A DNA stretch of 64,000 bases from Clostridiales bacterium UBA1775 (GTDB taxonomy: Bacteria > Bacillota > Clostridia > Monoglobales > Firm-18). The stretch's first letter is position 1. Every line of letters starts with the position of its first letter. Below the pieces are notes generated by a model. The model saw only the letters and a program-made list of their open reading frames with translations, was not told where the DNA came from and ran no database searches. Below, one piece after another: positions 16,424-34,652 of this stretch. The position numbers and the translations under genes were made by a program. The stretch covers positions 23,879-87,878 of the forward strand of contig DCGP01000017.1 in assembly GCA_002314595.1 (NCBI GenBank), in the 5' to 3' direction.

Positions 16424-16428
16424 AAGCG

Positions 16429-16689: not shown

Positions 16690-16718
16690 TTTACTTTTTC
16701 CATAAATTATGTTACAAT
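16690..16718 (+). promoter_or_regulatory. Putative promoter driving the leader of the secreted amidase/lectin gene
   Basis: TTTACT - 17 nt - TACAAT. Confidence 0.4.
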
Positions 16719-16724
16719 GAGCTT

Positions 16725-16896
16725 GCTAAACGTAACTTAATAAGATTCCATGGGAGTAGTATATTCAAAGCATTATACTCTTTTTTCACTATGACACTTT
16801 TGAATTTGACAAAAATGCAAATTCCATTAAGTATCATGGTGAACTATTCCTGTATATTTAAGTTATGTTTAGCGACTATCGGAGTTTGCGTTTTTT
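16725..16896 (+). promoter_or_regulatory. Structured 5' leader (unclassified)
   Basis: A 16-bp long-range helix pairs GCTAAACGTAACTTAA (16725-16740) with TTAAGTTATGTTTAGC (16858-16873), with one G-U. It encloses 117 nt, including an internal hairpin plus T-run (about 16754-16786). Confidence 0.35.
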
Positions 16897-16925
16897 ATGC
16901 GTCTGCTTCGGTAGGCGCATTTTTT
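16897..16925 (+). terminator. Leader terminator/attenuator 20 nt before the start codon
   Basis: 10-bp stem ATGCGTCTGC/GGTAGGCGCAT capped by a C(UUCG)G tetraloop, followed by TTTTTT. There is no room for a promoter between it and the ATG at 16946. Confidence 0.5.
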
Positions 16926-16945
16926 AATTTATGGAGGATTTGAGG

Positions 16946-19900
16946 ATGAAAAAAATAGGATTATATGCAATAATCAGCGTTTTGTTTTTAATATCATTTA
17001 CTATTCAAGTTTTTGCGGAAGAAAACTGTCATAGTATGATTAACGAATGGTATGGAAATGAGACTATTGCAAACAGTATTCCAAAAACTGTAAAGGAATA
17101 CTTTGATGTAAGAAAAAATTCTTTAATTGATTCTTCTCTATTTACAAGTAATTATGCAAGTGAAAAAGTACAAAAAAATGAAAATGAGCGTCGTGTAAAA
17201 ATACTTGAAATGCAATGTAGAATGAATATTAATATAGTAGATGTAGATAAACATATACAAGTATTGGAAACAAAGGTGGAAAATTCAAACACAATATTAA
17301 CTATTAAGGAATGGTTTTTCTATGATTACGATGATTTAGATGTTGAAGGGTTTAAAATTAACACAGCCGGATTTGGTACAACTCACACTTTAATTATAGA
17401 TAAGAATGATACTATTATTGATGACTTATACGATGAATCAGAAACCACAGGTATAATTACAACAGAAAGTAAAAATACTAATTTAATTAGTAAAAATATG
17501 TCAAGTTCAATAGAAAATATAGAAGAATCAAATATAAGCTTAATGAGCACCAATTTTTATTCAAGTTATAATGTTGATGCTGTTGTCACATATGCTGATA
17601 AATATTGGCAAAATTATAATACTAACTTTGCAAACTATAATCCGTATGGTGGTGATTGCACAAATTTCACATCACAATGTATTCTTGCAGGAGGAATGCC
17701 ACAAGTGTTATGTAGTAGTGGTATGACAAATGGATGGTATTATAATTCAACAAATGACCGTAGCGGTACATGGACAGTTGCTGGATACCTTAGAAATTGG
17801 ATGGCAAACAACCGAGGTGTCTTAGTAAATAATCCATCACCTTCGCAAATATACAAAGGTAGTCCTGTATTTTATAGCAGTAATGGTGGTAGTACATGGG
17901 CTCATGCTACAATTTGTGTCGGAACAAATTCAGAAGGGACTCCAATAATTGATTCTCATAATAATGATTACTATCATACAAAATGGAATTACTGGGGGAG
18001 TTCTACAACATACAGTACTGTGCAGTTGACACCGAGTAATAATTATACCAATATTCCAGCTATACAACGTGTGGTATGCACTACCAACGACGCTTCAAAC
18101 ATAGGAAATCACTCAGCAACACTTTCCGGTCATTTTACAAATCCGGGCGGTGCAAAAATTGTAAAGAGAGGTTTTCAATGGAGTACAACAACCGATATGA
18201 CACATTATACTATGTTTGATTGCAATATTACATGGGAAGATGGATTGACACATAATCAAACAACATTTTCTCCAAATACCACTTATTATTATAAATTTGT
18301 TGTTCAAGGCGAAGATGGAACATATGTATATGGGAATATGAAAAGTCTCACAACAGGACCATTTGGAAATATGACAGTTACTACAAATGATGCATATAAT
18401 ATAAAAACCAACTCTGCAACATTTAGTGGTAGTTTTTCTAATCCAAATGGTTTTGATGTGAAAAAAAGAGGATTTGTAATAGGTACTTCTTCTAATAATT
18501 TAAATTGGGAAATTATTTTCGATTGTGATATCACATGGAGTGATGGATTGACACATACCCAACCAGGACTTAAAGCTGGTACTACATATTATTACAAATT
18601 TGTTATTGGTGACGGAAATGGAAATTATAAATATGGCGGTTTGAAGAGCTTCACAACAAGAACAGCATTAGACACCGTTACAGTTACAACAAAAGACGCT
18701 TATAATATAACATCAAATTCGGCCACTTTTCATGGAAGTTTTGAACCCGGTGATTATACAATTAAAAAACGAGGATATGTTATTGGGACGGATTCAAATA
18801 ATTTAAATTGGGAAATTATTTTCAATTGTGATATCACATGGAGTGATGGCTTAACTCATACACAGCCAGGTCTTCAACCAGGAACAACATACTACTACAG
18901 GATGGTTGTGGGAGATGGAAATGGGAATTATAAATATGGCGGATTGAAATCTTTTACTACAGCTTGTAATAATCTCTCCGGACTGTACGCTATTAGACAT
19001 GTTGCAACAGGGAAGTATATTACTATGGGAAATAATGATATTGAGGGGAATCCTACGACATTAGTTGAACCAAGGTATAGCGGAGCTTTAGACACCGATC
19101 AACAATTATATTTCGAGTTGTTGTCTAATGGCGCATATAAGATTACTTCAAAAAGAAATGGATACGCATTTGAGGTAGGAGGACTTAGTAAAGATAATGC
19201 TGCTGTAGTTCAACAATGGGGATATGGAGGGATTTCCAGTCAACAGTGGTACGTATTTCGAAGGAATGACGGATATTATAAACTTGTTAATGTTAATTCA
19301 AGAAAGGCATTAGATATTGGGTCTAAAGTTCAACAATATGAGGATAATAATGCAGATGCACAAAAGTTTGAAATTATTCCGTTAACGTACGAAATCATAT
19401 ATAATGCTAATGGTGGAACAGGTGCACCAGATACACAATATAAAGTTTATAACCAAAACTTAACTTTATGCAATTCTATTTTAACCCGTCCAGGATATGT
19501 TTTCTGGGGATGGGCGGACAATGTTCAAAATGCAGAAAATGCAACATATCCAGCAGGCGGAACATTTACCGGAAACTATAGCACTACATTATATGCTGTT
19601 TGGAAAAAAGCTACCTATACCAATCATGTTCAATATTGGACTTGGGGATACAAAAATGGTGAAGGTGACAATACAGATAAAAACGCATTTTTCGTTGGAG
19701 AATATTCGTGGAATGGTGCCTTTAGCGATAGCCAAACATTTACAGAAAATATGACGAAGGAAATTCGTGGATTTAATTATCAAAAGAAATTGGTTTCTCC
19801 AACATTTACAGGTGAGTGGATTTCGTATTCTTTACCTTATACTTTTAGTCAACCAGCACAAGATGTATGGGCAAATATTGACTATGTTCCTACAGCGTAT

Positions 19901-20434
19901 GAAATAAGGTATGAATTAGATGGTGGAGTTAACAATAATGATAATCCAACTGAATATAATATTCTTTATGGAGTGAAATTCAAAGAACCGACAAAAGAAG
20001 GCTATGTTTTTAAAGGTTGGAAGGATAAAAATGGAAACGATATTGCTGGAGTTAACGAAAACTGTAATGCTTCATTTACAAGTGTTGATGATTTTTATAA
20101 TGCAGTAAATTCGAGAACTATTGGTGAAATAACTGTAAAGGCAGATTGGGAACCCATAACACCTTATACGGAATCCGTAGTTTCAGAAGCTAATAACACC
20201 TATGCTATATCAACCGATTTTATCAACATCACATCAGGCAAAATCATTGTTGCCGGATATAAAGATAATAAATTAGTTAACTTTGTTATAAGAGATTATT
20301 CACAGGAAAATGAAAGCTTTGAACTAAGTGGCGATATTGACACCATCAAGGTTATGGTATGGGATGGGCTTAACACCTTAGTGCATCTTACATCAGCGGA
20401 AGTTATTCCACAAAGTAGCTGGGCGACTGAGTAA
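16946..20434 (+). CDS. Secreted multidomain protein: amidase-like domain, 3 tandem Ig/Fn3-like modules, ricin-type lectin, Listeria-Bacteroides repeats
   Basis: Signal peptide MKKIGLYAIISVLFLISFTIQVFAEE. YADKYW...NYNPYGGDCTNFTSQCILAGG resembles the 'putative amidase domain' (Amidase_6) Cys motif. Three ~97-aa repeats. QQW/QKF beta-trefoil motifs (SQQWYVFRR, AQKFEI). Two Flg_new-type repeats (YNANGGTGAP...GYVFWGW; YELDGG...GYVFKGW). Start set to ATG 16946 after GGAGG. Confidence 0.85.
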   Translation: MKKIGLYAIISVLFLISFTIQVFAEENCHSMINEWYGNETIANSIPKTVKEYFDVRKNSLIDSSLFTSNYASEKVQKNENERRVKILEMQCRMNINIVDVDKHIQVLETKVENSNTILTIKEWFFYDYDDLDVEGFKINTAGFGTTHTLIIDKNDTIIDDLYDESETTGIITTESKNTNLISKNMSSSIENIEESNISLMSTNFYSSYNVDAVVTYADKYWQNYNTNFANYNPYGGDCTNFTSQCILAGGMPQVLCSSGMTNGWYYNSTNDRSGTWTVAGYLRNWMANNRGVLVNNPSPSQIYKGSPVFYSSNGGSTWAHATICVGTNSEGTPIIDSHNNDYYHTKWNYWGSSTTYSTVQLTPSNNYTNIPAIQRVVCTTNDASNIGNHSATLSGHFTNPGGAKIVKRGFQWSTTTDMTHYTMFDCNITWEDGLTHNQTTFSPNTTYYYKFVVQGEDGTYVYGNMKSLTTGPFGNMTVTTNDAYNIKTNSATFSGSFSNPNGFDVKKRGFVIGTSSNNLNWEIIFDCDITWSDGLTHTQPGLKAGTTYYYKFVIGDGNGNYKYGGLKSFTTRTALDTVTVTTKDAYNITSNSATFHGSFEPGDYTIKKRGYVIGTDSNNLNWEIIFNCDITWSDGLTHTQPGLQPGTTYYYRMVVGDGNGNYKYGGLKSFTTACNNLSGLYAIRHVATGKYITMGNNDIEGNPTTLVEPRYSGALDTDQQLYFELLSNGAYKITSKRNGYAFEVGGLSKDNAAVVQQWGYGGISSQQWYVFRRNDGYYKLVNVNSRKALDIGSKVQQYEDNNADAQKFEIIPLTYEIIYNANGGTGAPDTQYKVYNQNLTLCNSILTRPGYVFWGWADNVQNAENATYPAGGTFTGNYSTTLYAVWKKATYTNHVQYWTWGYKNGEGDNTDKNAFFVGEYSWNGAFSDSQTFTENMTKEIRGFNYQKKLVSPTFTGEWISYSLPYTFSQPAQDVWANIDYVPTAYEIRYELDGGVNNNDNPTEYNILYGVKFKEPTKEGYVFKGWKDKNGNDIAGVNENCNASFTSVDDFYNAVNSRTIGEITVKADWEPITPYTESVVSEANNTYAISTDFINITSGKIIVAGYKDNKLVNFVIRDYSQENESFELSGDIDTIKVMVWDGLNTLVHLTSAEVIPQSSWATE
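18071..18963 (+). repeat. Three tandem ~97-codon intragenic repeats (units 2 and 3 spaced exactly 300 nt apart)
   Basis: Units begin VVCTTNDASNI / MTVTTNDAYNI / VTVTTKDAYNI and end KSLTT / KSFTT / KSFTT. Units 2 and 3 share long identical DNA stretches (for example aataatttaaattgggaaattattttc at 18494 and 18794). Confidence 0.75.
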
Positions 20435-20454
20435 AGCTTAATAAATCAAAAAAA

Positions 20455-20493
20455 GAGCAATAGGACAAATGAGCCTATTGTTCTTTCTTTTTG
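20455..20493 (+). terminator. Intrinsic terminator of the secreted-protein gene
   Basis: 11-bp hairpin AGAGCAATAGG-acaaatga-CCTATTGTTCT (one G-U), then TTCTTTTT. Confidence 0.65.
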
Positions 20494-20560
20494 CACCCCT
20501 TTTTAATAGGTTTTGCACCCCCTAAATCAATTCCATCAAAATATAGTTATCTACACAAAT

Positions 20561-20603
20561 AAGGACAAGTGTTTTGATACCAAAATGCTTGTCCTTTTTT
20601 TAT
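20561..20603 (+). terminator. Second, stronger orphan terminator
   Basis: 16-bp stem AAGGACAAGTGTTTTG-atac-CAAAATGCTTGTCCTT (two G-U) followed by TTTTTTT. There is no ORF between it and the previous terminator. Confidence 0.55.
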
Positions 20604-20735
20604 GCTCAATACACTTGTGAAGAGTCATTTTACAGATTTGTTAGTTTCAGAGGTACTGTCTTAAATGGGTTTATTGTGTTTTTGAACAAAGAAAACTGAG
20701 AAAAATATGGAAAAGGGAGAATTTTGTAAAGTCCA

Positions 20736-20764
20736 TTTACTTTTTTTATGAAATATGATATAAT
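20736..20764 (+). promoter_or_regulatory. Putative promoter of the NRPS operon
   Basis: TTTACT - 17 nt - TATAAT with extended TG (TGaTATAAT), 54 nt upstream of the ATG at 20818 (SD AAGGAG). Confidence 0.45.
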
Positions 20765-20817
20765 AAATGTGGAATATTAGAGTTTTTTAATATTATTTTG
20801 TTATAAGGAGCAAAGGA

Positions 20818-23800
20818 ATGGATAGATTTAAAGATACAAAAAAAGAGTCTATGTTAACAGACAGTCAATTTGGCATTTACCTTGAATGTATTGATGAAAA
20901 TAATTGTGCAGACTACTTATTGCCTATTTCTTTTGTTTTTCAAAAGGGAAAAATTGATGCAGTAAAATTGTCCGACGCATTTGATAAAGTGGCAAATACT
21001 TATTCGGCTTTTTCGACTGTTATCAAAACGGTTAATTCCGAGCCTATTATGACCATTTATGATAAGGAATTGCCAAAACTAAAAGTTAGAAAAATCTCTG
21101 AAAACGATGTCAAAACAAGAAAGATGGAGCTATTTAAGCCATTTTCCTTTAACGGAGAGCTTTTGTGGAGAGGCGAAATCCTTGAAACCGAAAACGATAT
21201 TATATTTTTGCTGATTATCCATCACAATATCTTTGACGGAACATCAATGGCAGTATTAAATAATGCCCTTGCACTTGCCTATGAGGGAAAGGACTTGTCG
21301 GAGGAAGGCACAGTTTTTGATGCAAAAAAAGCAGAAGATGATATGGTTGACAACGGAATTTCAAAAGAATCAATGGATTTTTATGACGAATATTTAGACG
21401 GTATTGAAACCGACTCAAACATAATTCCCGATATGCCACAGGTCAATACCTCAAAAATGGCAGTTGTTGATGTTGCTTGTGAAATACCAATGGATAAAAT
21501 CACAGCCTTTGCAAAGGAAAATTCAGTAACTGAGAATATTGTATTTTTAAGTGCATTTGCCTATACTCTTTGCAAGGTAAATGGTCAAAAAGATGCGCTT
21601 TTCTCCTCAGTTGAAAGTGGACGATTTGGTGGAGGATACAATAATTCGATAGGTATGTTTGTAAAGTCTTTTCCAATCCGAATAAATTATGACGAGGAAA
21701 TTGCGTCCTTTGATTTCGTTAAGGGAGTTAAAACAAACTTTTTTAATACGCTATCACATAATCACATAAAATTTTCTGATTTAATTCAAAATTATTCAGG
21801 AATTGCAGATGTTAGATACATATACCAAGGCGAAATGTTTAAGGGCATTGCAGTTGGTGGTGTTGCTCCTCGCATAGATGTGCTTGATACCTATGAGCCT
21901 GTGTCCAATTTTGACTTTATGGTATACAAAATTGACAACACATTCAGAATATGGTTGGGATATAAATGCACAATGTATACAAGGGAACTAATTGAGCATT
22001 TTGCAGATATGTTTTTTTGTGTTTTAAACGGAATGTTAGACGGCAAAAAACTTGGGGATATTTCCTTTGTATCACAAAAGGGTATGGAGGAATTAGACAA
22101 AATCAATAATACAAAGTTTACCTATGACGAGGGGTTGACGGTAAACAGTATTTTTGAAGAAGCAACCGAGAAATATCCCAATAACATCGCTGTTTTATAC
22201 AAGGATAAAAAGCTGACATACAGTGAGCTTAATACTCAAATCAACAAAGTGGCAACATATGTTTCACAAAAAGGAATAGGCAAAAATGAATTTGTATCGG
22301 TTTTAATTCCAAGAAACGAATTTATGCCAATAACAGCAATGGGAATAATTAAGGCAGGTGCAGGTTATCAGCCTCTTGACCCCACATATCCAAAGGACAG
22401 GCTTGACTTTATGGTATCGGACAGCAAGTCAAAACTTTTGATTGCCGACCGAAGCTTAATAGGATTGTTGTCAGAGTACAAGGGCGATATACTATATACC
22501 GATGAAATTGATAATATTTCCGAAATGCCTTTTAAAACAGACGTAAAACCTGACAACGCATTTGTTTTGATATATACATCGGGCACAACAGGTACGCCAA
22601 AGGGGTGTATTATTGAAAACAAAAATATAGTAGCGCTGTATTTTAATCATAAAAAATTAGTTGAATTGTCGCCTAATTCAAAAGTTGCAACCATTGCAAG
22701 TTTTGGATTTGACGCAGCAGTTATGGATATTTTTACAACGCTTATGGTAGGCGCAACTCTTTATATTATTCCGGATGAAATCAAATTGGATATTCCCGAA
22801 GTAGAAAAAATATACATAGAAAACGGCATAACAAATGGTTTTATGACAACGCAACTGGGACGAATGTTTTTGGAACAAACAAAATGCAAGACACTAAAAC
22901 ATTTCGTTTTAGGGGGAGAAAAGCTTGTGCCATTCACACCACCTGCTTGGGTTCAATGTCATAACTGCTATGGCCCAAGCGAAACAATAGCCTACGTTAC
23001 AGGCTATACCATAAAAGATGACAGTTCGATGCAGCCTATAGGAAAATTAAGCATAAATACAAAGGCATATATTGTAGATTCTACAAACAGGTTGCTTCCT
23101 ATCGGTGCTTGCGGTGAACTTTGTATTGCAGGCTTGCAAGTGGGTAGGGGTTATTTTGAACGCCCTGAAAAGACTGCAGAAGTGTTTGTTAAAAATCCAT
23201 TTTCTAACGAATGTGGTTATGACAGAATATATAAAACAGGCGATGTAGTAAGATTATTGCCCGATGGAAATTTAGACTTTATCGGTCGTCGAGACGGACA
23301 GGTGAAAATTCGTGGATTTAGAATTGAGCTAACAGAGGTTGAACAGGTTATAAGAAGTTTTGACGGCATTAAAAATGCTACTGTTCAAACCTATGATGAT
23401 GCAGTTTCGGGTAAATTTATTGCTGCCTTTATTGTGGCTGACAGCAAGATTGACATTGACAAATTAAACAAATATATTATGAGTCAAAAGCCTGCATATA
23501 TGGTGCCGGCAGTTACCATGCAGATAGATAACATTCCGGTCAATGCAAACGCAAAGGTTGATAAGAAAAAATTGCCAAAGCCGGAGTATAGTTTTGGTGA
23601 AATTGTCGCACCTCAAAACAACACGCAACAAGATATTTTTGATATAGTTACATCAGTTATCGGAACAACTGCAATAAGCATTGATACCGATTTGTATCTT
23701 GCAGGTCTTTCTTCGATAGGTAGTATTAAACTATGTTCACTTTTAGCAGAGAAATTTAATATAACTATTCAAATGAAGGATTTAAAGCAAAACAATACCA

Positions 23801-26800
23801 TAGTAAAACTCGAGACGTTTGTGGATACAGCCGGACAAAATGCTGAGTTTGAACGTACAATACTTGACGATTATCCATTAACTAAAACACAAGAGGGTAT
23901 TTTTGTTGAATGTATATCAAAGCCTGAAAGTACAGTCTACAATATCCCAATTTTGTTAAAACTTTCGGATAAGCTTGATATAAATAAGTTAAAATCGGCA
24001 ATAGTTAGTGCAGTTTCAGCTCATCCCTACATTAAAACAGAGCTATTTACCGATGAAAACGGAACTGTTCGTCAAAAGAAAATGGACGATGCTCATTTTG
24101 ATGTTGACAGTATTGACAATATAAACGAAGAAATAGACAGCATAAAAGAAACATTGATACAACCCTTTGAGCTGTTAAATTCAAGACTGTTTAGGGTAAA
24201 GATAATTAAAGATTCCTATTTGTTCTTGGAATTTCATCACATTATTCTTGACGGAACGAGCATTAACCTATTTCTACGTGATATTGAAAAGGCATATTGT
24301 GGTGAGGAGCTCCAAGAAGAACGTTATAATAGTTTTGACTTGTCATATAACGAGGAGCAAAAAAGAAAAACATCAGCACTTGATGAGGCTAAAAAACACT
24401 ACGACAATATTTTAGATGGACTTGATATGAACTTCTTGCCTGAGCCGGACAGACTTATGTCGGCAAAAAAGGATAGTGGAAGCCTTTTGATGAGTCAAAT
24501 GTTACCTTCTGTTGATAAGGTTTTGGAATATTGTAACAAGAACAATATAGGTATAAACGGCTTTTTGTCCGGTGTATTTGGGTTTGTGCTTGCAAAATAT
24601 GCAGGAACTGAATACTCTGTTTTCAACACAATTTATAATGGTCGAAACGATTCCAGGGCAATGACAACTATCGGTATGCTTGTAAAAACAATTCCTGTTG
24701 TTTGCAATATCGAAAAGGAAAATTCAGCAGATATAGCAAAGGCTGTTTCATCACAAATTATAGACAGTATGACAAATGACCTATATTCCTTTGCAGAAAT
24801 CTGTAATGAGTATGGCGTTAGAAACGATATTGTTTTTGTATACCAAGGAGACGACTTTGAGTTTAATACCTTCTGTGGTGAAACGGTTAGCGAGGTACAT
24901 CTTGAATTATCCGAATCAAAGGCACCCATTGCCTTTGAGGTTTCAATCGTAAATGGTAAATTTAATTATAAGGTTGACTATAATGCCGAAATATTTACCG
25001 AAAAACTAATACAGACCTTAGTATGTGCTTTTGATAAAGCTATTTATTCCTTTGTTAATGGCGAAAAGGTAAGTGAAATTTCCCTTTTGACTGATGAAAT
25101 CACTAAGGAACTTGATAAATATAACGAAACCGAATTCGTATATGATACATCTAAAACTATTATTGACCACTATATAGAGCAAGTGAAGTTGAACCCTGAT
25201 AGGAAATGTGTTGTATACAAAGATAAAACATACACCTACAAAGAGGCCAATGATTTATCACGAAAGGTTTCATCCCATTTGATTTCAAGTGGAATAAACA
25301 AGGGTGATATTGTCGCAATTTTAATAAACCGTGATGAAAATATGATTCTTGCGTCCTATGGTGTTATTATGTCAGGATGTGCTTATGTAGGACTTGACCC
25401 AACATATCCAAAGGATAGGCTTGACCTTATGATTACCGATAGTGGAGCAAAGGCGTTGATTGCCGACCGAAGCCTAATGGGACTTATAAGTAAACCTGAC
25501 TGTAAAATCATATATACCGATGAATTTGAAGCCTTGCCAACCAACGATGATGTTGTAGACCAAAGAATCAGCGAAATAACACCGAATGACAGATGTTTGG
25601 TAATATATTCATCAGGAACGACAGGAGTGCCAAAGGGTGCAGTTTTGTGCCATAAAAACGTTGTTAGTTTCTATTACAATTATACAAATGATATGGATAT
25701 TAAGGTAGGCTCTTGTGTTGCAACCTATGCAAGCTTTGGGTTTGACGGAGGTGCACAAGATGTGTTCTGTTGCCCTATGTCAGGGGCAAGTTTGTACGTT
25801 ATTCCTGATGATATTAGGCTTGATATGGACAAGCTTGAACAATTCTATATCCAAAACAAAATAACAAGTGGATTTATGACAACACAAGTTGGTGCAATGT
25901 TTGTAAACAATACAAAGTGCCGTACACTACGCAACTTCTTAGTTGGTGGAGAAAAGCTTATTCCTGCAATTCCACCTGCTTGGACAAACTTTATGAATGG
26001 TTACGGTCCCAGCGAAACTATGTGTTATGTAAACAAATACCATGTTGCAGATACAGGAAATCTTCAACCAATCGGAAAGACAAGCAAGAATGTTAAAGAA
26101 TACATAATTGATAAGTACGGAAACAGACTTCCCTTTGGTGCTTGTGGTGAGCTTTGTATTTCAGGTGGTCAAACAGGTATGGGTTATCTGAACAGACCTG
26201 AAAAAACAGCACAATCATTTGTAAAAAATCCGTTCTGCAACCTTGAACCTTATGACAGAATGTATAAAACCGGCGATATTGCAAGGATAATGCCTGACGG
26301 AAATTATGTATTTGTAGGCAGACGGGACGGCCAGGTTAAGATTCGAGGATTTAGAGTTGAACTTTCGGAAATCGAACAACAAATAAGAAAATTTGACGGA
26401 ATAACAAATGCCACTGTTGAAGCATTTGATAGTAGCACAGGTGGAAAATTCCTTGCTGCTTACATTGTAGCAAATAAAGAAATTGACATTGCAAAATTAA
26501 ATGAATTTATAGCATCGGAAAAGCCTGACTATATGGTGCCTGCCGTAACAATGCGACTTGACGAAATACCACTTACTTCAAATGGTAAGGTAGACAAGAA
26601 AAAACTTCCTAAGCCGACCCCAACAACAAGAAAGGGAATTGAGCCTGCAAACGAAACGGAAGAAACTATTTGCGATATTTTTGAAGAGGTTTTAGGACTT
26701 GAAAAAGTATATGCCGATGATGATTTCTTTGCAATAGGTGGTTCATCTATCTCGGCAATCCAAGTTGTTGTAAAATGTAATAACGCAGGGTATAGCATAG

Positions 26801-28077
26801 TATTTAAAAATCTATTTTCAAACCCTACACCTCACGGATTATGTGAGTTTATTCACGGAGGACGTGATACAAAAGTATTTGCTCCTGATGATAAAGAAGC
26901 AGACAAATATGATTACAGTGCTTTAAAATACAACACAGTGGACTATGTAAACGAAATTACCTCAGGAGAAATAGGCGATGTTCTTTTGACAGGCGTTACA
27001 GGATTTTTAGGTAGCCATATTTTAAAGGAATTGATTGAAAACACAAGTGGAAACGTCATTTGTTTGGTTAGAGCAAAGGGCGATATGAGTGGTGAAACAA
27101 GATTCCAAATGATGATGACCTACTATTTTGAAGATTGGTTTACCGATGAAATGAAAAAACGTGTTACTGTGATTGAAGGCGAGCTGGGCGACGAAGGTAT
27201 TTTGGAAAAAGTTAAGGATTGCCATTTTGACACTATTATCAACAGTGCTGCAAATGTAAAGCATTTCGCAGCAGGCGATGAATTATTAAAGGATAACTTT
27301 ACGGGTGTTGGGAATATGGTTGCTCTTGCAGAAGAAAAGAATGCGTTATTTGTGCAAATTTCTTCAACAAGTGTCAGTGGTGAAGCCGTTGAGGGTGGAG
27401 TTTCAGACGATTTCTTGTTTAGAGAATGCGACCTAAACATTGGTCAATCCCTTGAAAATAAGTATATTTTTTCAAAATATCAAGCAGAACAACTTGTTAT
27501 TGATGCAATTTCAAAGGGGAAAATTAGGGGCAAGGTAATTCGTTTAGGCAACCTTATGGCAAGAGAGAATGACAGCGAATTCCAAATAAATGCCGGTTCA
27601 AACGGATTCTTAAAACAATTTTCCGGTTATAAAAAACTTGCAATGTTCCCTGTTGATTTGATGGATAAGCATATTGAATTTTCTCCCATAGATTCGACGG
27701 CAAAGGCAATAGTGTTGTTATCGGGAACTCCTGACAAGTTTACCGTATTCCACGCAAAAAACTGCAACTCTATACATTACGGATACTTTATTAACGCAAT
27801 GATTAGCAAGGGAATAAATATAAATATTGTGCCTAATGAGGTTTTTACAAAGCGATATAAGCAAGCACTAAATGAGGAAACGGACATTTCGGATTTTACA
27901 TCATTTATTGCATATATGAGCAATGCAAACAGCGATAAAGTTATGCACCAAATTGAATCAAGTGCAGATTTTACCACAAAGGCGTTATACAGACTTGGCT
28001 TTGCTTGGCCGTTAATAAGTAGCAAATATTTAGAGGAAATGGTTAAAACACTAATTGATTTAAGCTTTTTCTCATAA
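20818..28077 (+). CDS. Dimodular non-ribosomal peptide synthetase, C-A-T-C-A-T-R (terminal thioester reductase)
   Basis: Motifs read directly. C1 HHNIFDG (nt ~21220). A1 LIYTSGTTGTPKG / NCYGPSE / GRRDGQVKIRGFRIEL / NAKVDKKKLP. T1 LAGLSSIGS (~23700). C2 HHIILDG (~24235). A2 VIYSSGTTGVPKG / NGYGPSE / GRRDGQVKIRGFRVEL / NGKVDKKKLP. T2 FAIGGSSIS (~26740). Reductase Rossmann LLTGVTGFLGSHIL (~26985) and Y-x3-K (YIFSK). No TE domain. Confidence 0.95.
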   Translation: MDRFKDTKKESMLTDSQFGIYLECIDENNCADYLLPISFVFQKGKIDAVKLSDAFDKVANTYSAFSTVIKTVNSEPIMTIYDKELPKLKVRKISENDVKTRKMELFKPFSFNGELLWRGEILETENDIIFLLIIHHNIFDGTSMAVLNNALALAYEGKDLSEEGTVFDAKKAEDDMVDNGISKESMDFYDEYLDGIETDSNIIPDMPQVNTSKMAVVDVACEIPMDKITAFAKENSVTENIVFLSAFAYTLCKVNGQKDALFSSVESGRFGGGYNNSIGMFVKSFPIRINYDEEIASFDFVKGVKTNFFNTLSHNHIKFSDLIQNYSGIADVRYIYQGEMFKGIAVGGVAPRIDVLDTYEPVSNFDFMVYKIDNTFRIWLGYKCTMYTRELIEHFADMFFCVLNGMLDGKKLGDISFVSQKGMEELDKINNTKFTYDEGLTVNSIFEEATEKYPNNIAVLYKDKKLTYSELNTQINKVATYVSQKGIGKNEFVSVLIPRNEFMPITAMGIIKAGAGYQPLDPTYPKDRLDFMVSDSKSKLLIADRSLIGLLSEYKGDILYTDEIDNISEMPFKTDVKPDNAFVLIYTSGTTGTPKGCIIENKNIVALYFNHKKLVELSPNSKVATIASFGFDAAVMDIFTTLMVGATLYIIPDEIKLDIPEVEKIYIENGITNGFMTTQLGRMFLEQTKCKTLKHFVLGGEKLVPFTPPAWVQCHNCYGPSETIAYVTGYTIKDDSSMQPIGKLSINTKAYIVDSTNRLLPIGACGELCIAGLQVGRGYFERPEKTAEVFVKNPFSNECGYDRIYKTGDVVRLLPDGNLDFIGRRDGQVKIRGFRIELTEVEQVIRSFDGIKNATVQTYDDAVSGKFIAAFIVADSKIDIDKLNKYIMSQKPAYMVPAVTMQIDNIPVNANAKVDKKKLPKPEYSFGEIVAPQNNTQQDIFDIVTSVIGTTAISIDTDLYLAGLSSIGSIKLCSLLAEKFNITIQMKDLKQNNTIVKLETFVDTAGQNAEFERTILDDYPLTKTQEGIFVECISKPESTVYNIPILLKLSDKLDINKLKSAIVSAVSAHPYIKTELFTDENGTVRQKKMDDAHFDVDSIDNINEEIDSIKETLIQPFELLNSRLFRVKIIKDSYLFLEFHHIILDGTSINLFLRDIEKAYCGEELQEERYNSFDLSYNEEQKRKTSALDEAKKHYDNILDGLDMNFLPEPDRLMSAKKDSGSLLMSQMLPSVDKVLEYCNKNNIGINGFLSGVFGFVLAKYAGTEYSVFNTIYNGRNDSRAMTTIGMLVKTIPVVCNIEKENSADIAKAVSSQIIDSMTNDLYSFAEICNEYGVRNDIVFVYQGDDFEFNTFCGETVSEVHLELSESKAPIAFEVSIVNGKFNYKVDYNAEIFTEKLIQTLVCAFDKAIYSFVNGEKVSEISLLTDEITKELDKYNETEFVYDTSKTIIDHYIEQVKLNPDRKCVVYKDKTYTYKEANDLSRKVSSHLISSGINKGDIVAILINRDENMILASYGVIMSGCAYVGLDPTYPKDRLDLMITDSGAKALIADRSLMGLISKPDCKIIYTDEFEALPTNDDVVDQRISEITPNDRCLVIYSSGTTGVPKGAVLCHKNVVSFYYNYTNDMDIKVGSCVATYASFGFDGGAQDVFCCPMSGASLYVIPDDIRLDMDKLEQFYIQNKITSGFMTTQVGAMFVNNTKCRTLRNFLVGGEKLIPAIPPAWTNFMNGYGPSETMCYVNKYHVADTGNLQPIGKTSKNVKEYIIDKYGNRLPFGACGELCISGGQTGMGYLNRPEKTAQSFVKNPFCNLEPYDRMYKTGDIARIMPDGNYVFVGRRDGQVKIRGFRVELSEIEQQIRKFDGITNATVEAFDSSTGGKFLAAYIVANKEIDIAKLNEFIASEKPDYMVPAVTMRLDEIPLTSNGKVDKKKLPKPTPTTRKGIEPANETEETICDIFEEVLGLEKVYADDDFFAIGGSSISAIQVVVKCNNAGYSIVFKNLFSNPTPHGLCEFIHGGRDTKVFAPDDKEADKYDYSALKYNTVDYVNEITSGEIGDVLLTGVTGFLGSHILKELIENTSGNVICLVRAKGDMSGETRFQMMMTYYFEDWFTDEMKKRVTVIEGELGDEGILEKVKDCHFDTIINSAANVKHFAAGDELLKDNFTGVGNMVALAEEKNALFVQISSTSVSGEAVEGGVSDDFLFRECDLNIGQSLENKYIFSKYQAEQLVIDAISKGKIRGKVIRLGNLMARENDSEFQINAGSNGFLKQFSGYKKLAMFPVDLMDKHIEFSPIDSTAKAIVLLSGTPDKFTVFHAKNCNSIHYGYFINAMISKGININIVPNEVFTKRYKQALNEETDISDFTSFIAYMSNANSDKVMHQIESSADFTTKALYRLGFAWPLISSKYLEEMVKTLIDLSFFS

Positions 28078-28093
28078 AAAGGAAGGTATAAAA

Positions 28094-28390
28094 ATGAATA
28101 TTGAAGTAAAAAAAGAAAACGGAAACACTGTGATTTGCCTAAACACAAGGCTTGACTCGACCACTGCCGGTGAATTAGATGAAGTAATTCAAAAAGAAGT
28201 GCAGGCTGTTGAAAACAATATGATAGTTGACTTGAAAAATGTTGATTTTGTATCATCTATCGGACTTCGTGTGCTTGTTTCTGCTTACAAGTCACTAGAC
28301 GGAAAGCAGATGATAATAAAAAATGCAAACAGTTCGATAATAGAGGTGTTAAAGCTATCCGGATTGTTATCTCTGTTTACAGTTGAGTAG
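28094..28390 (+). CDS. STAS-domain protein (anti-sigma-factor antagonist, SpoIIAA/RsbV type)
   Basis: 98 aa. DLKNVDFVSSIGLRVLV aligns with SpoIIAA LEDLSFMDSSGLGVIL, so the phospho-acceptor Ser (S54/S55, nt 28253-28258) is present. C-terminal LKLSGL motif. SD AGGAAGG, 16 nt after the NRPS stop. Confidence 0.85.
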   Translation: MNIEVKKENGNTVICLNTRLDSTTAGELDEVIQKEVQAVENNMIVDLKNVDFVSSIGLRVLVSAYKSLDGKQMIIKNANSSIIEVLKLSGLLSLFTVE

Positions 28391-28399
28391 GGTAACGTT

Positions 28400-30169
28400 A
28401 TGGAAAACAAAAAGAAAAGTATCGAATATACGAGAAATGAACGAACAACAAATAAAGTAGTAGCATTCTTTTTGCTTCTCTTCGTTGCAATGACTATCGT
28501 AAACGAGTTTATTCTAACAGTTGACTATGCAACAAACTTGGATTATGCAAACAAGTATGTATATTTTCCAATAAGCATTGTCTTAGTCTGCATTTTTGCG
28601 ATTGCATGGATATATAATTTTGAGGCATATTGGCTAAAACACGTACTGATGGGTGGACTTATTTTAGTGTCCATTATTGTGTTCTTTGTGTTTACAACCT
28701 ACGCATTGTATTCTGTCTTTATACCACTAATTATTGCAACACGATATTTTAATAAAAAAATGATTTACACAGTCTCTATAATTACCGGGGTGTTGTTTGT
28801 TGTTGCATGTATATTAAATGTCACACTGGAATCTGTTTCGGAAACAATTCAAATATTTCACCAAAATGTTGTATATAACATTTGGCAAAGTTATCTTGAC
28901 GCCATTGTTTATATAGCAATTCCTTGCCTTTTGGTTATGGTATTCATGTTAATTTTCGGAATAAATTTAACCAAAAGTGGAAGAAATTTGCTAATGGAAC
29001 AAATAGATAATAATAAAAAGATTGCATCAGTTGACGCCGAGCTTGAAATGGCAGCCAAAATACAAAAAAGCGTTCTTCCAAAGCCATATTTTCAAACGGA
29101 AAATAAAAACTTTACTTTGTCGGCATTTGAAACTCCGGCAAAGGAGGTTTGTGGAGATTTTTTTGACTATTTCATGGCAGGGGAAAACAGCATGGCGATA
29201 TTGGTTGCAGATGTGTCCGACAAAGGTGTTCCTGCAGCAATGTTTATGATGTCTGCCAAAAAGGTAATGCAATGCGCGATTGAAAGCTGCGATACATTAG
29301 ACGATGCCATTGAGCTTGCTAACAAACTAATATGCAACGACAACCAATACGGAATGTTCTTGACATTGTGGATGGGTGTAATAAATGTCAAAAGTGGTGT
29401 AGGAAAATATGTAAATGCAGGTCATCCATACCCCATTATAAAACACGCAGATGGCAGTGTTGAGTTTATTGAAAATGAACCCGATTTATTTCTTGGCAAT
29501 TTCCCAAAAAAGAACCCGAAAGTCAATACCTTTGTTATGAAGCCTGATGACGTGCTTTTTATTTACACTGATGGTTTGACTGACTCAATGAATCAGAAAA
29601 GGGAATGTTTTGGTATTAAAAGAGTTATTAACCAAATAGAGCAAAGTGAAAATGATGCTGAAAAGCTGGCCAAGTCTGTAATCGAGTCAGTAAAAGAGTT
29701 TTCAAAGGAAAGTGTTCAATTTGACGATATAACAACGCTTTGTCTAAAATGCAACAAAATTGATGAGCCGGATTTTGCAAGTTGTAAGATTACTAGTGGA
29801 ACAGAAGGCACTAAAATAATCAATGACAAAATTCAAGAGATGTTAATAAATGCAAAATGTCCTGATGAAAAGCGTCGCAATATTGGTGTAGTAGTTGATG
29901 AAATTTGCGCAAACATCAACGAACACGGCTATCACGAAAACGGAGAAATTGAAGTTAACGCACTTGTTGGAGATAATTATGCTAAAATCCAATTTTTAGA
30001 CAACGGCAAAGCCTTTAATCCTCTTGAAAAAACCGACCCGATTATAACCGACGAACCACAAATAGGTGGGTTGGGAATTTATTTTGTAAAGCAACTTTCC
30101 GACAACTTTTCCTATGAATATGTTGACGGAAAAAACAAACAGACAGTGTTATTTATATGGAATATGTAA
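28400..30169 (+). CDS. Membrane-anchored PP2C (SpoIIE/RsbU-type) phosphatase fused to an RsbW/SpoIIAB-type HATPase kinase domain
   Basis: About 5-6 TM helices (aa ~20-195). PPM motifs VCGDFFDYF, ILVADVSDKGVPAAMFM, IYTDGLTDS, FDDITTLCL. C-terminal GHKL ATPase N-box VVVDEICANINEHGY, G1 FLDNGKAFNP and G2 GGLGIYFVKQL. Starts 9 nt after the STAS stop. Confidence 0.85.
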   Translation: MENKKKSIEYTRNERTTNKVVAFFLLLFVAMTIVNEFILTVDYATNLDYANKYVYFPISIVLVCIFAIAWIYNFEAYWLKHVLMGGLILVSIIVFFVFTTYALYSVFIPLIIATRYFNKKMIYTVSIITGVLFVVACILNVTLESVSETIQIFHQNVVYNIWQSYLDAIVYIAIPCLLVMVFMLIFGINLTKSGRNLLMEQIDNNKKIASVDAELEMAAKIQKSVLPKPYFQTENKNFTLSAFETPAKEVCGDFFDYFMAGENSMAILVADVSDKGVPAAMFMMSAKKVMQCAIESCDTLDDAIELANKLICNDNQYGMFLTLWMGVINVKSGVGKYVNAGHPYPIIKHADGSVEFIENEPDLFLGNFPKKNPKVNTFVMKPDDVLFIYTDGLTDSMNQKRECFGIKRVINQIEQSENDAEKLAKSVIESVKEFSKESVQFDDITTLCLKCNKIDEPDFASCKITSGTEGTKIINDKIQEMLINAKCPDEKRRNIGVVVDEICANINEHGYHENGEIEVNALVGDNYAKIQFLDNGKAFNPLEKTDPIITDEPQIGGLGIYFVKQLSDNFSYEYVDGKNKQTVLFIWNM

Positions 30170-30214
30170 TACAGTCTCTATAAAAAAGAAAAATAGCATA
30201 AAATACAACTTTTT

Positions 30215-30260
30215 AAAAACGACTAACATTTAGTTAGTCGTTTTGTAGTTTATTTAAAAT
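30215..30260 (+). repeat. 46-bp direct repeat, copy A (contains terminator hairpin 30216-30244)
   Basis: AAAAACGACTAACATTTAGTTAGTCGTTTTGTAGTTTATTTAAAAT is identical to 33209-33254. The hairpin AAAACGACTAAC-attta-GTTAGTCGTTTT ends the NRPS operon. Confidence 0.9.
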
Positions 30261-30320
30261 AAAGCGTGAAAACAAAAAGCAGGTTGAAGAAAGACTTATT
30301 GAAAAATATATAGGCGAAAT

Positions 30321-31073
30321 CTAAATTGTCATATTCTTTCTCATTTTTAAAGGTGCAATTTTATATTTCTTTTCAAATTCTTTTCTAAAATATGAATAAG
30401 AACTAAATCCCAAATCGTCACTGATTTGGGATATTTTTTTATCTGTTGAAACTATCATATCCTTTGCTTTTTCAAGAATTATTTCTTTTCTCATAGAATT
30501 CAAGGTTGTATTTGATGATTTTCTGAAAGCAAAATAAATCCCTGACGGGCTAATATCAAATTTTTCGGAAATTTCGTAAATTGTGGCTTTGGGATTTTTA
30601 TACAAGTAATTGTTTATTTTTTCAACAAGCTTTATGGATTTATTAACCTTAATGCTTTTCATATTTTCCATTAAATGCCCAACCAAAAAATAAAATCTTC
30701 CTATATCTTTCGGAGAAAGCTTTCTTACATCTTTCAACTCGTCAAAGATTTTAATATTTTCTTTATCACACTCAACAACTTGAACAGGATAACTTTTACT
30801 GTCAACATTAGGCAAAAATTCAAAACCCAAGGAAACGAATTTAATCTTTGGAGTTCCGTACCAATATGATCTATACCCTTGCTTATTGGGAATATAAAAC
30901 ACATCGCCTTTATTTATTTCAACATAATAATCCTTTGTTACAATTTTACATCTTCCCTCTTCCATATATGCAAAATAATGAGCACCTATCCCCTTTTGAT
31001 TATCTGTGTAATGATATGAATCAAATGAAAAATAATTAAAATTAAAACTATTAGCGAAAATTATGTCATTCAT
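30321..31073 (-). CDS. AraC family transcriptional regulator (cupin + HTH)
   Basis: N-terminal cupin-like sensor (GDVFYIP) and C-terminal double HTH (ISQISDDLGFSSYSYFRKEFEKKYKIAPLKMR). Confidence 0.85.
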   Translation of the reverse strand: MNDIIFANSFNFNYFSFDSYHYTDNQKGIGAHYFAYMEEGRCKIVTKDYYVEINKGDVFYIPNKQGYRSYWYGTPKIKFVSLGFEFLPNVDSKSYPVQVVECDKENIKIFDELKDVRKLSPKDIGRFYFLVGHLMENMKSIKVNKSIKLVEKINNYLYKNPKATIYEISEKFDISPSGIYFAFRKSSNTTLNSMRKEIILEKAKDMIVSTDKKISQISDDLGFSSYSYFRKEFEKKYKIAPLKMRKNMTI

Positions 31074-31180
31074 ACCAAATCTCCCTAAAATACTTGAATA
31101 AAATTACCTGTTTTTTAAATTATATCATCTTTTTTTTATTCTGTCAATTTGCTATAATTAGGTTTAGAGGTGATGATTTT

Positions 31181-32203
31181 ATGAAAAACAAAAGAATAGT
31201 ATTTACAAAACCGTATACAGCAGAGCTTCTAGATGTTGAGATGAATCAGCTTAATGACAACGATGTTAAGGTTAAAACTATGTTTAGTACAATAAGCTGT
31301 GGAACGGAAAAAGCAAATTATATAGGCGACCCAAACTGCTCCGTATCAAGTAACGCAAAAACTACTTTCCCAAGGTCTGTTGGTTACAGCAGTTCAGGTG
31401 TTGTTGTAGAAGTAGGCAAAAACGTTAAAGACCTTAAGGTCGGTGACAGAGTTGTAACTTTTTGGGGAGTTCATACAAAATACAATATTTTAAATGAAGG
31501 CAGAGTTGTAAAAATCGAATATGACGACGTAGATTTTCAATCTGCAGCAATGACATTTATTTCAACATTTCCTCTTGCAGCAATCAGAAAAACAAAAATT
31601 GAAATTGGTGAAAGTGCTATGGTTATGGGACTTGGAATTCTTGGAATTTTTGCCGTTAAATATTTAAGACTTGCAGGAGCAACACCAATTATTGCAGTAG
31701 ATTTTAACAAAGAAAGACGAGAAATTGCTTTAAAAAACGGAGCAGATTTTGCCTTTGACCCGTCTAATGAAAACTTTTCCGAAAAGGTTAAACAGGTTAC
31801 AAACGGGGGAGTTAACGTTGCAATTGAGGTTACGGGTGTCGGAGAAGGACTTAATGAAGCCCTTGACTGTATGAAGAAAATGGGAAGAGTCGCTCTTCTC
31901 GGTTGCACAAGAAATTCCAATTTCACCGTTGATTACTATAAAAAAGTTCACGCACCGGGAATTTCTTTAATTGGCGCTCACACTAATGCAAGGCCCGGTA
32001 ATGAATCTTATCCTAATCATTTTACACATAGAGATGACATAAAAGTTGCTTTAAATTTGTTACATTCAAAAAGGGTTGAGTTTATTTCTTTAATTCAGGA
32101 ATTTCACTCACCAAAGGATTGCACAAAGGTTTATGATCGTCTTGTTAACGACAAAAGTTTCCCTATTGTTTCTCAATTTGATTGGAGGGACATTGATGAT
32201 TAA
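31181..32203 (+). CDS. Medium-chain (Zn-type) dehydrogenase/reductase family oxidoreductase
   Basis: GroES-like N-domain (SCGTE, GDRV) and Rossmann GLGILGIFAV. Start at ATG 31181. The track's extension to 31094 is AT-rich non-coding. Confidence 0.8.
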   Translation: MKNKRIVFTKPYTAELLDVEMNQLNDNDVKVKTMFSTISCGTEKANYIGDPNCSVSSNAKTTFPRSVGYSSSGVVVEVGKNVKDLKVGDRVVTFWGVHTKYNILNEGRVVKIEYDDVDFQSAAMTFISTFPLAAIRKTKIEIGESAMVMGLGILGIFAVKYLRLAGATPIIAVDFNKERREIALKNGADFAFDPSNENFSEKVKQVTNGGVNVAIEVTGVGEGLNEALDCMKKMGRVALLGCTRNSNFTVDYYKKVHAPGISLIGAHTNARPGNESYPNHFTHRDDIKVALNLLHSKRVEFISLIQEFHSPKDCTKVYDRLVNDKSFPIVSQFDWRDIDD

Positions 32204-33227
32204 AATTGCCCAAATCGGCATAGGTCATGACCATGCTGTTTGTATGATAAACTCACTTAAAAATCTTCCGGAAATTTTCGAAATTGTGGGGTACTGCATT
32301 GTTCCTGAAGAATACGAAACAGCCAAAGACAAGTTTGATGAAAAAACAAGAAAAAGTTATGACGATATTAAAGAAATGACCGTTGAAGAAATTTTGAATT
32401 TTGAAGGGCTTCAAGCAGTTACAATTGAAACAGAGGACAGAAGCTTAACCAAATATGCAATTCTTGCAGCAGAAAAAGGCCTTGCAATTCAAATGGACAA
32501 ACCGGGAAGTGCCTCTGATGAAGATTTTGACAAATTGATTGACCTTGTTAAAGAAAACAATCTTGTTTTTTCAACAGGTTATATGTATCGCTTTAACCCT
32601 GCAGTTATTGAACTTAAAGAAAAAATAAAAAAAGGTGACTTTGGAGAAATTTATTCCATTGATGCTACTATGAATTGTACTCACAACGTTCTAAAAAGAG
32701 AGTGGCTAAAAAATTATCCGTCAGGAATGTTATATTTTTTAGGTTGCCACTTAATTGATTTGGTTTACAGTATTTTAGGTGAGCCTAAAAATGTTATCCC
32801 TTTAAGCAGACACACAGGAATTGACAATGTTGATGCAGATGACTTCGGTATGGCAATTTTCGAATACGAAAACGGGGTTTCAACCGTTAAAAGTACCTCA
32901 GTTGAATGTGGTGGCTATTTGCAAAGGAGGTTAACTCTTTGTGGTTCAAAGGGAACCTTTGAAATTCAACCTCTCGAAAGCCATGCAGAAGAAAATTTGC
33001 CTTTTGCCTACGGATTGACAACATCAACAAAGGAAAATCATGATAATAATTGGGGGTCATCACCAATAATTAAGGATTATAAGCCATTCCCAAGATATAA
33101 CAATATGCTTTGTGCCTTTGCCGATTACATTTTAGGCAAAAAAGAAAATCCATACTCTTATGAGTATGAAAGAAATTTACATAAGCTTATATTAAAGGCT
33201 TGTACTAAAAAAACGACTAACATTTAG
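32196..33227 (+). CDS. Gfo/Idh/MocA family oxidoreductase
   Basis: N-terminal Rossmann MIKIAQIGIGHDHA. GGAGGG SD 5 nt before ATG 32196. It overlaps the upstream gene by 8 nt. The last six codons (KKTTNI) and the stop lie inside repeat copy B. Confidence 0.8.
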   Translation: MIKIAQIGIGHDHAVCMINSLKNLPEIFEIVGYCIVPEEYETAKDKFDEKTRKSYDDIKEMTVEEILNFEGLQAVTIETEDRSLTKYAILAAEKGLAIQMDKPGSASDEDFDKLIDLVKENNLVFSTGYMYRFNPAVIELKEKIKKGDFGEIYSIDATMNCTHNVLKREWLKNYPSGMLYFLGCHLIDLVYSILGEPKNVIPLSRHTGIDNVDADDFGMAIFEYENGVSTVKSTSVECGGYLQRRLTLCGSKGTFEIQPLESHAEENLPFAYGLTTSTKENHDNNWGSSPIIKDYKPFPRYNNMLCAFADYILGKKENPYSYEYERNLHKLILKACTKKTTNI

Positions 33228-33254
33228 TTAGTCGTTTTGTAGTTTATTTAAAAT
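33209..33254 (+). repeat. 46-bp direct repeat, copy B (bidirectional terminator 33210-33238)
   Basis: Perfect copy of 30215-30260. It spans the 3' ends of both converging genes (oxidoreductase stop 33225-33227, uxaC stop 33248-33250). Confidence 0.9.
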
Positions 33255-34615: not shown

Positions 34616-34652
34616 AATGTAAATCCCTTTTTATTTTATAATTATTTATCGG

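Follow-up and report, generated by a model that had tools for sequence, protein, structure and literature searches.

What does a partner-switching module control when it lies beside a peptide synthetase gene and no sigma factor gene is encoded with it? The question is raised by a locus of Clostridiales bacterium UBA1775 (GenBank assembly GCA_002314595.1), where a 64,000-nt stretch of contig DCGP01000017.1 (positions 23,879 to 87,878; hereafter the window) carries a nonribosomal peptide synthetase (NRPS) gene followed by genes for a small STAS protein and for a membrane protein that joins a PP2C phosphatase to a GHKL serine kinase (the fusion). The evidence presented here consists of sequence analysis and a predicted structure. 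A functional link between the NRPS and the switch proteins is well supported, and we lean, if only modestly, towards the view that they form a phospho-switch dedicated to the NRPS pathway, acting on a component of that pathway and not on a co-encoded sigma factor.

The NRPS gene and the switch genes that follow it

The three genes (Table 1) have the coordinates given in a first-pass annotation of the window and are all on the forward strand. Only 16 nt (AAAGGAAGGTATAAAA) separate the NRPS and STAS genes, and these include a GGAAGG Shine-Dalgarno sequence, while 9 nt (GGTAACGTT) separate the STAS and fusion genes. Both junctions are too short to leave room for a terminator, in agreement with the annotation. 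The promoter-like element upstream and the hairpin downstream that it described were both found again, and to these can be added the strong terminator of the preceding gene, which isolates the unit on its 5' side. The candidate promoter is weak evidence by itself because such sites are not enriched in the window (80, against 75.5 +/- 8.4 in shuffled sequences). A similar site (TTTACT-17-TACAAT) is present upstream of the NRPS gene of one orthologous locus (L006), and in another (L003) the NRPS gene starts about 20 nt after an upstream acetyltransferase gene. A promoter motif common to the cassettes was considered and rejected, as the upstream regions are too diverged and TTTACT-17-TAnAAT occurs only in the window and L006. 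A scan of nt 15000-35000 against Rfam for a leader RNA element returned only one tRNA and one sub-threshold match. In related cassettes the junctions are mostly -17 to +16 nt, and the genes often overlap. The layout of the three genes resembles that of a single operon, which would be a minimal biosynthetic cluster, and from it we infer that they are co-transcribed.

Table 1. Positions of the genes, domains and boundary elements, numbered from the first nucleotide of the window unless another locus is named.
Feature	Position	Strand	Remarks
Intrinsic terminator of upstream gene	20561-20596	+	5' boundary of unit; 16-bp stem then T-run, strong
Candidate promoter, sigma-70-like	20736-20764	+	TTTACT-17-TATAAT, TG-extended
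NRPS gene	20818-28077	+	2419 aa, C-A-T-C-A-T-R
NRPS C1 domain	~20818-22137	+	
NRPS A1 domain	~22153-23607	+	
NRPS T1 carrier Ser966 codon	23713-23715	+	
NRPS C2 domain	~23866-25113	+	
NRPS A2 domain	~25150-26613	+	
NRPS T2 domain	~26662-26853	+	
NRPS R domain	~26980-28074	+	
STAS gene	28094-28390	+	98 aa, single domain, anti-sigma-factor-antagonist type
STAS Ser55 codon	28256-28258	+	predicted phospho-acceptor, from alignment
Membrane-PP2C-GHKL fusion gene	28400-30169	+	589 aa
Five-helix membrane domain of fusion	28400-28999	+	aa 1-200; presumed signal input
PP2C (SpoIIE-type) domain of fusion	29075-29755	+	~aa 226-452
GHKL serine-kinase domain of fusion	29825-30169	+	~aa 476-589; RsbW/SpoIIAB-like, HATPase_c_2
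Terminator hairpin	30216-30244	+	3' boundary of unit; 12-bp stem
MatE exporter with HATPase_c_2	L081:6964-8703		both domains detected by Pfam
MatE exporter with HATPase_c_2	L051:6515-8284		both domains detected by Pfam
MatE exporter with HATPase_c_2	L076:15261-16922		both domains detected by Pfam
MatE exporter, same layout	L049:6068-7822		Pfam detects the MatE part only

Scans against Pfam and NCBIfam resolved the NRPS into two Condensation, two AMP-binding, two PP-binding and one NAD_binding_4 domain, corresponding to the condensation (C), adenylation (A), carrier (T) and reductase (R) domains of Table 1. Both C domains carry HHxxxDG (at aa 135 and 1140), the core motifs of A1 and A2 are intact, the carrier serines lie in AGLSSIG (T1) and GGSS (T2), and the R domain has GVTGFLG and YxxxK motifs. 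Two modules that end in a thioester reductase with intact catalytic motifs are features of the AusA/gut dipeptide-aldehyde family. The best NCBIfam model was AusA, with a score of 1104.5 bits that is below the equivalog cutoff of 2500, and since the match begins only at aa 359 the N-terminal C domain appears as an addition. Gut dipeptide-aldehyde NRPSs (Guo 2017; Schneider & Balskus 2018, rup/ruminopeptin; both as cited in a review, PMC12327764) and AusA of Staphylococcus aureus share the bimodular, reductase-terminated organisation, with a gut or rumen habitat, and the window enzyme differs from AusA in the two respects just given. Both specificity codes, DAMFVGCAYK and DGQFLGGCYK, are shared by the orthologues, and to neither can a canonical code be assigned with confidence; they were extracted with a PheA reference that was self-consistent at all ten positions. 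The starter C domain, the two modules and the terminal reductase together predict, by domain order and established NRPS logic, the release of an N-acyl dipeptide aldehyde.

Both Pfam (3.4e-15) and TIGR00377 (62.5 bits, above the cutoff of 53.45) identify the 98-aa protein as a STAS protein. Its Ser55 aligns with Ser58 of SpoIIAA and Ser56 of RsbV and is invariant in 23 of 23 STAS proteins drawn from all cassette types, so that the site first proposed only as Ser54/55 can now be read as Ser55. In the fusion, Pfam detected SpoIIE/PP2C (1.3e-43) and HATPase_c_2 (5.3e-17), and the kinase domain gave weak matches to the RsbW and SpoIIAB models. An alignment of 36 full-length fusion sequences showed the metal-binding residues of PP2C (D253, D271, D391, D442 and D443) to be invariant, together with the N-box (N505), G1 box (D534/G536) and G2 box (G556/G557/G559) of the GHKL domain; N13, P109, Y116 and P175 of the membrane domain are conserved. 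No Response_reg match, and so no REC input domain, was found in the fusion, the N-terminus of which is a five-helix membrane domain. In the AlphaFold2 model (mean pLDDT 89.1, about 90 for the membrane helices) the helices span aa 8-41, 45-71, 79-116, 119-144 and 165-225 with very short loops between them, in agreement with hydropathy, and the fifth runs on as a long connector into the PP2C and then the GHKL domain. The closest structure in the PDB is the RsbU-RsbW part of Mycobacterium tuberculosis Rv1364c (3KE6, E 1.3e-18), followed by the PP2C domains of SiaA, RssB and SpoIIE. A STAS protein with a predicted phospho-acceptor serine, a GHKL domain with N, G1 and G2 boxes and a PP2C domain with its metal aspartates make up, in enzymatic terms, a module of the RsbV/RsbW/RsbU type, and the joining of kinase and PP2C in one polypeptide beside a separate STAS protein is the arrangement of SypE/SypA and HsbR/HsbA. 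With the catalytic motifs and Ser55 conserved, the switch proteins look functional.

The predicted phospho-site of the STAS protein (FVSSIGL) resembles the T1 carrier motif, and the T1 serine was considered as a target of the kinase. This candidate was rejected: the T1 motif is also present in NRPS relatives that have no module nearby (L096, L097, L103, L112), which makes the four-residue match a family trait or a matter of chance.

Recurrence of the association in other genomes

Proteins of PP2C-GHKL architecture abound: more than 5,000 relatives were found, mostly without linkage to an NRPS. The subfamily that shares the membrane domain of the window fusion is small, and all its orthologues with at least 47% identity to that fusion (the reference for all identities in this survey) adjoin an NRPS of the C-A-T-C-A-T-R type, with unrelated flanking genes. 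The gene orders are acetyltransferases-NRPS-STAS-fusion (P0003, 53%), NRPS-STAS-fusion beside genes for a ribosomal protein, UvrD and SecA (P0005, 50%), STAS-fusion-NRPS-PPTase with an NRPS of 3002 aa (P0007, 49%) and NRPS-STAS-fusion-PPTase (P0011, 47%), where PPTase denotes a phosphopantetheinyl transferase. The last order recurs at greater distance in P0029 (33%) and P0028 (32%), from a metagenome-assembled genome (MAG) of Paludibacteraceae with flanks of Bacteroidota type. In a Fibrobacter MAG (L015, 34%) a STAS-fusion pair is convergent with an R-terminated NRPS, and P0020 (34%; L012) belongs to a STAS-PPTase-fusion array at a contig start.

The reciprocal survey began from the T-R end of the NRPS, over which six cassette NRPSs are 59-75% identical to that of the window. 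A metagenome scan with an alignment of T-R ends returned 18 relatives with R domains 41-56% identical, the neighbouring ORFs of which were searched with profiles; 17 of these loci were informative (L107 was not). STAS and/or the fusion were present in 11 of the 17, in at least five gene orders. The fusion and STAS genes follow the NRPS directly in L100 and L105, as they do in L099, where a PPTase gene precedes the NRPS, and in L101, which has a PPTase gene on the opposite strand; L104 reads NRPS-fusion up to the contig end. A PPTase gene lies between NRPS and fusion-STAS in L109 and L111, and is joined to the fusion gene in L106 (NRPS-[PPTase::fusion]-STAS). The remaining orders are NRPS-PPTase-STAS (L095, where the contig ends soon after, and L108) and STAS-NRPS-PPTase (L110). 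The first-pass annotation had named the absence of adjacency in relatives carrying the same NRPS as the outcome that would speak against its proposal, and adjacency is largely present.

Gene order thus varies while proximity is kept, the flanks are unrelated, and the association is spread across phyla, all of which argues for functional coupling and not for inherited synteny. A merely coincidental or hitch-hiking neighbourhood, in which the switch would have nothing to do with the NRPS, would account for those relatives of either partner that occur without the other, but we consider it very improbable when the association recurs in at least three phyla and is recovered in both survey directions.

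Some further observations were made in these surveys. In L099 (nt 11429-11989), L101 (nt 4890-5444) and L105 (nt 2943-3509) some 560 nt lie between the NRPS and fusion genes, and these gaps appear to code for a small conserved protein of about 180 aa with a single membrane pass, which has no counterpart in the window. A second Fibrobacter MAG (L016:7062-10992) has two tandem modules, in the order STAS-fusion, then a PP2C with a 5TM-LytS-like domain, then a second STAS, with no NRPS within about 7-10 kb. The homology search with the T-R end returned mostly short fragments, with no characterised names among the matches. Close T-R relatives are annotated in MAGs of methanogens, namely Methanocorpusculum, Methanosphaera and Methanobrevibacter (P0125, P0155, P0242), and also in Bacteroidales, Fibrobacter and Thermoguttaceae, a spread that suggests wide horizontal transfer of this reductase-terminated NRPS family in gut ecosystems.

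Possible targets of the switch

Pfam searches of all substantial ORFs in the window found no sigma factor, PPTase, MbtH or exporter gene, as the first-pass annotation had stated, and none of the Pfam-annotated related neighbourhoods contains a Sigma70-family gene. A cognate sigma factor encoded with the module is therefore lacking from the 64-kb window and from the annotated related loci alike. The annotation had gone on to suggest an output other than a sigma factor. As an argument for this, the absence of a sigma gene nearby is weak, because known PP2C-kinase fusions, Rv1364c among them, have as their targets sigma factors whose genes lie elsewhere; indirect support for the suggestion comes instead from fusions of switch parts to a PPTase, to MATE exporters and to adenylating enzymes. 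The PPTase and exporter genes, which belong to the cassette in many relatives, had been overlooked.

The first such fusion is a single 848-aa ORF (L106:7475-10021) in which an ACPS (PPTase) domain precedes the membrane, PP2C and GHKL domains; in its relatives L109 and L111 the PPTase and the fusion are separate genes. A second is found in a sister cassette of Ruminococcus sp. JE7B6 (complete genome, NZ_CP162391.1; locus L049, in the order NRPS-MatE::GHKL-STAS-HAMP-PP2C-GHKL), another Ruminococcus MAG, Blautia and Erysipelotrichaceae. There a MatE exporter with a C-terminal HATPase_c_2 domain (Table 1) is encoded beside an R-terminated NRPS and STAS or, as in L081, L051 and L076, between them, and a sensor-PP2C-GHKL protein is encoded separately. 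In L049, L051 and L081 the GHKL domain attached to the exporter lacks the G2 ATP-lid motif, and that of L049 also lacks the N-box Asn, whereas the PP2C-linked GHKL domains keep both. With G2 lost, these exporter-attached domains look like non-catalytic docking sites for STAS, which would make this a literal partner switch between kinase and exporter. We know of no description of a MatE exporter carrying an RsbW-like HATPase_c_2 domain. Plain MatE genes adjoin the module in L136 and L012. The third kind joins STAS to an adenylate-forming (AMP-binding) enzyme, encoded beside a PP2C in L059 (nt 7280-9157). In this STAS::AMP-binding family (P0243-P0362), which is large and conserved in rumen and gut Clostridia, 118 of the 120 top clusters, to identities as low as 52%, have both domains, and the phospho-serine is kept. 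In the loci surveyed, fusions join switch parts to pathway proteins, and none to a sigma-related domain was seen. These fusions, the missing sigma genes and the mobility of the cassette across phyla are moderate evidence in favour of a pathway protein, rather than a sigma factor, as the output.

Classical anti-sigma logic would have the GHKL domain sequester a sigma factor encoded elsewhere until dephosphorylated STAS frees it, with the sigma factor then driving the NRPS operon (autoregulation) or a wider regulon; Rv1364c with SigF and CrsR with RpoS are parallels. The resemblance of the fusion to the RsbU-RsbW part of Rv1364c, the weak matches of its kinase domain to RsbW and SpoIIAB and the abundance of PP2C-GHKL proteins away from NRPS genes all suit such a scheme, which we nevertheless hold to be rather unlikely, given that neither the window nor any annotated related locus has a sigma gene and that the pathway-protein fusions have no sigma-related equivalent. 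The cassette is also found in Firmicutes-like, Bacteroidota and Fibrobacter genomes, the alternative sigma repertoires of which differ, so that a self-contained output is more parsimonious, and the best NRPS promoter candidates, those of the window and L006, look housekeeping-type.

Taking the observed gene architecture, intact motifs, two-way cross-phylum linkage, absence of sigma genes and domain fusions as the starting point, we infer the direction, signal and target of a dedicated switch as follows. The GHKL domain of the fusion would phosphorylate STAS on Ser55, and the PP2C domain would remove this phosphate once a cue is sensed by the five-helix membrane domain; the cue may be lipophilic or come from the envelope, and might be the acyl-dipeptide aldehyde product itself. 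Unphosphorylated STAS, or the GHKL domain that it occupies, would contact a pathway component by protein-protein interaction, and the candidates are the adenylating NRPS, PPTase-dependent priming and product export; of these pathway components, the window has just the NRPS gene beside those of the switch. In its most specific form, which we put forward tentatively and rate at somewhat below an even chance, the proposal is that phospho-STAS, or the GHKL domain it occupies, gates peptide synthesis post-translationally by directly binding an A domain, the PPTase or the exporter, and that a portable, sigma-free cassette has spread horizontally among gut Firmicutes, Bacteroidota and Fibrobacter.

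Alternatively, the module might be the receptor for the product and not a regulator of its synthesis: the membrane domain would sense the lipophilic aldehyde or pyrazinone, and phospho-STAS would pass the signal to other functions, as in a synthase-receptor pair of the quorum-sensing style. We think this improbable, as it leaves the fusions to PPTase, MATE exporter and adenylating enzymes unexplained and no downstream effector is encoded nearby, although a sensor fully embedded in the membrane with short loops would be apt for a lipophilic ligand, genes for a synthase and its receptor usually lie side by side, and the linkage statistics fit a receptor as well as regulation. It also partly overlaps with the dedicated switch preferred here, in the form of a feedback loop.

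Several observations weigh against a switch dedicated to the NRPS pathway. The closest solved relative of the fusion, Rv1364c, belongs to a sigma-directed system. Six of the 17 NRPS relatives have no module (L096, L097, L098, L102, L103, L112), and four relatives of the fusion, at loci L011, L016, L136 and L137 (P0017, the L016 protein, P0034, which lies in the order MatE-STAS-fusion, and an Agathobaculum-type protein), have no NRPS, so the coupling of NRPS and module is facultative. In L003 and L006 the gaps between NRPS and STAS are 100-160 nt, with hairpins in L003, and separate transcripts are therefore possible in some relatives. The clues from domain fusions come from sister cassettes, the window cassette itself having neither a PPTase nor a MATE gene; the PPTase::fusion ORF of L106 is found on one metagenomic contig only and may be a sequencing artefact, and no PP2C or kinase gene adjoins the STAS::AMP-binding gene of a cultured strain, Ruminococcaceae YRB3002.

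The same three activities, a STAS phospho-Ser antagonist, a GHKL kinase and a PP2C, make up RsbU/RsbV/RsbW (sigma-B) and SpoIIE/SpoIIAA/SpoIIAB (sigma-F) of Bacillus, but here a single membrane protein holds both kinase and phosphatase, neither the operon nor the 64-kb window encodes a sigma factor, and the genes are embedded in an NRPS operon. Rv1364c has the same PP2C-then-GHKL fusion; its chain additionally includes PAS and STAS domains, its target is SigF, and unlike the window fusion it has no membrane domain and no biosynthetic context. Systems with other outputs are closer in their working, above all SypE/SypA of Vibrio fischeri, a dual kinase/phosphatase and STAS protein encoded inside the syp polysaccharide locus that they control, in which unphosphorylated STAS is the active output and the target is not a sigma factor (PMC8256260, PMC4517449). 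SypE is a soluble kinase-REC-PP2C protein of a polysaccharide pathway, whereas the window protein is 5TM-PP2C-kinase and its pathway makes a non-ribosomal peptide. SiaABCD of Pseudomonas aeruginosa likewise combines a membrane PP2C (SiaA), a kinase and a phospho-switch protein, with a diguanylate cyclase as target (PMC8457831, PMC7647112), so that its output is an enzyme and not a sigma factor; it differs in that kinase and phosphatase are separate proteins and SiaC is phosphorylated on Thr. In Anabaena, the HenR/All4160/Alr3423 PP2C/kinase switch on a STAS domain directly regulates a biosynthetic enzyme (bioRxiv 10.64898/2026.04.08.717354), which parallels both the STAS::AMP-binding fusions and the model proposed here, although the pathway is for exopolysaccharide, the host is a cyanobacterium and the genes are dispersed rather than in one cassette. 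From all three of these systems the window module differs in its input domain (a five-helix bundle, not REC), domain order and pathway.

Few biosynthetic clusters of gut and rumen bacteria are as widespread as those for reductase-terminated dipeptide NRPSs, the aldehyde products of which inhibit proteases. If the proposed control is real, a dedicated phospho-switch would be a concrete reason why gut dipeptide-aldehyde clusters stay silent in culture; for the native products of Ruminococcus bromii, a review describes exhaustive isolation attempts that failed (PMC12327764). The switch would also be a handle for turning such clusters on, by a non-phosphorylatable STAS, a kinase-dead fusion or omission of the module in heterologous expression. 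A full-text literature search found no paper linking partner switching, STAS, SpoIIE or RsbW to an NRPS cluster, although the cluster maps of Guo 2017 and Schneider & Balskus 2018 could already draw these genes, and the earlier remark that no NRPS pathway with an embedded partner-switching module had been described stands to that extent. This would then be the first partner-switch control of an NRPS pathway, and it would take partner switching beyond sigma-factor control into secondary metabolism. The principle is not new; what is described here is a regulatory cassette, conserved and portable, that accompanies an NRPS family of ecological prominence and has so far escaped discussion. To judge from the fusions of STAS to adenylating enzymes and of MATE exporters to a pseudo-kinase, anaerobes may employ STAS/GHKL pairs more widely, in a way not yet described, as plug-in regulators of enzymes and exporters.

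Surrounding genes

The locus is set among housekeeping genes (ClpC-like, the dcw cell-wall cluster, LuxS) and genes of hexuronate catabolism, in DNA of about 35% GC. The gene upstream of the NRPS (nt 16931-20434) encodes 1167 aa, with Amidase_6, ricin-type lectin and Listeria-Bacteroides repeat domains; its product is probably secreted, as a hydrolase that acts on the cell wall or binds glycans. A terminator lies between this gene and that of the NRPS, and the gene is not conserved beside orthologous cassettes. Further upstream there is a tRNA gene (nt 16350-16420, 58 bits) with a perfect TTGACA-17-TATAAT promoter (12/12, with TG; nt 16309-16337) and its own terminator (nt 16434-16452).

Downstream of the fusion gene, a perfect 46-nt direct repeat (nt 30215-30260 and 33209-33254) contains the terminator hairpin, and the two copies bracket a 2,994-bp segment with genes for an AraC-family regulator and two oxidoreductases (Zn-ADH and GFO/IDH/MocA). 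The segment looks like an insertion into the terminator that separates the switch operon from uxaC, or like a duplication of that terminator. The AraC gene (nt 30321-31073) was considered as a regulator of the cluster and rejected, as it sits in the repeat-bracketed segment with the sugar oxidoreductases and is absent from all orthologous loci. Beyond this segment, on the reverse strand, altronate/galactarate dehydratase is split into two ORFs (nt 34653-35369 and 35474-36031), one for the C-terminal domain and one for the second domain, and represents either a frameshifted pseudogene or a naturally two-gene enzyme.

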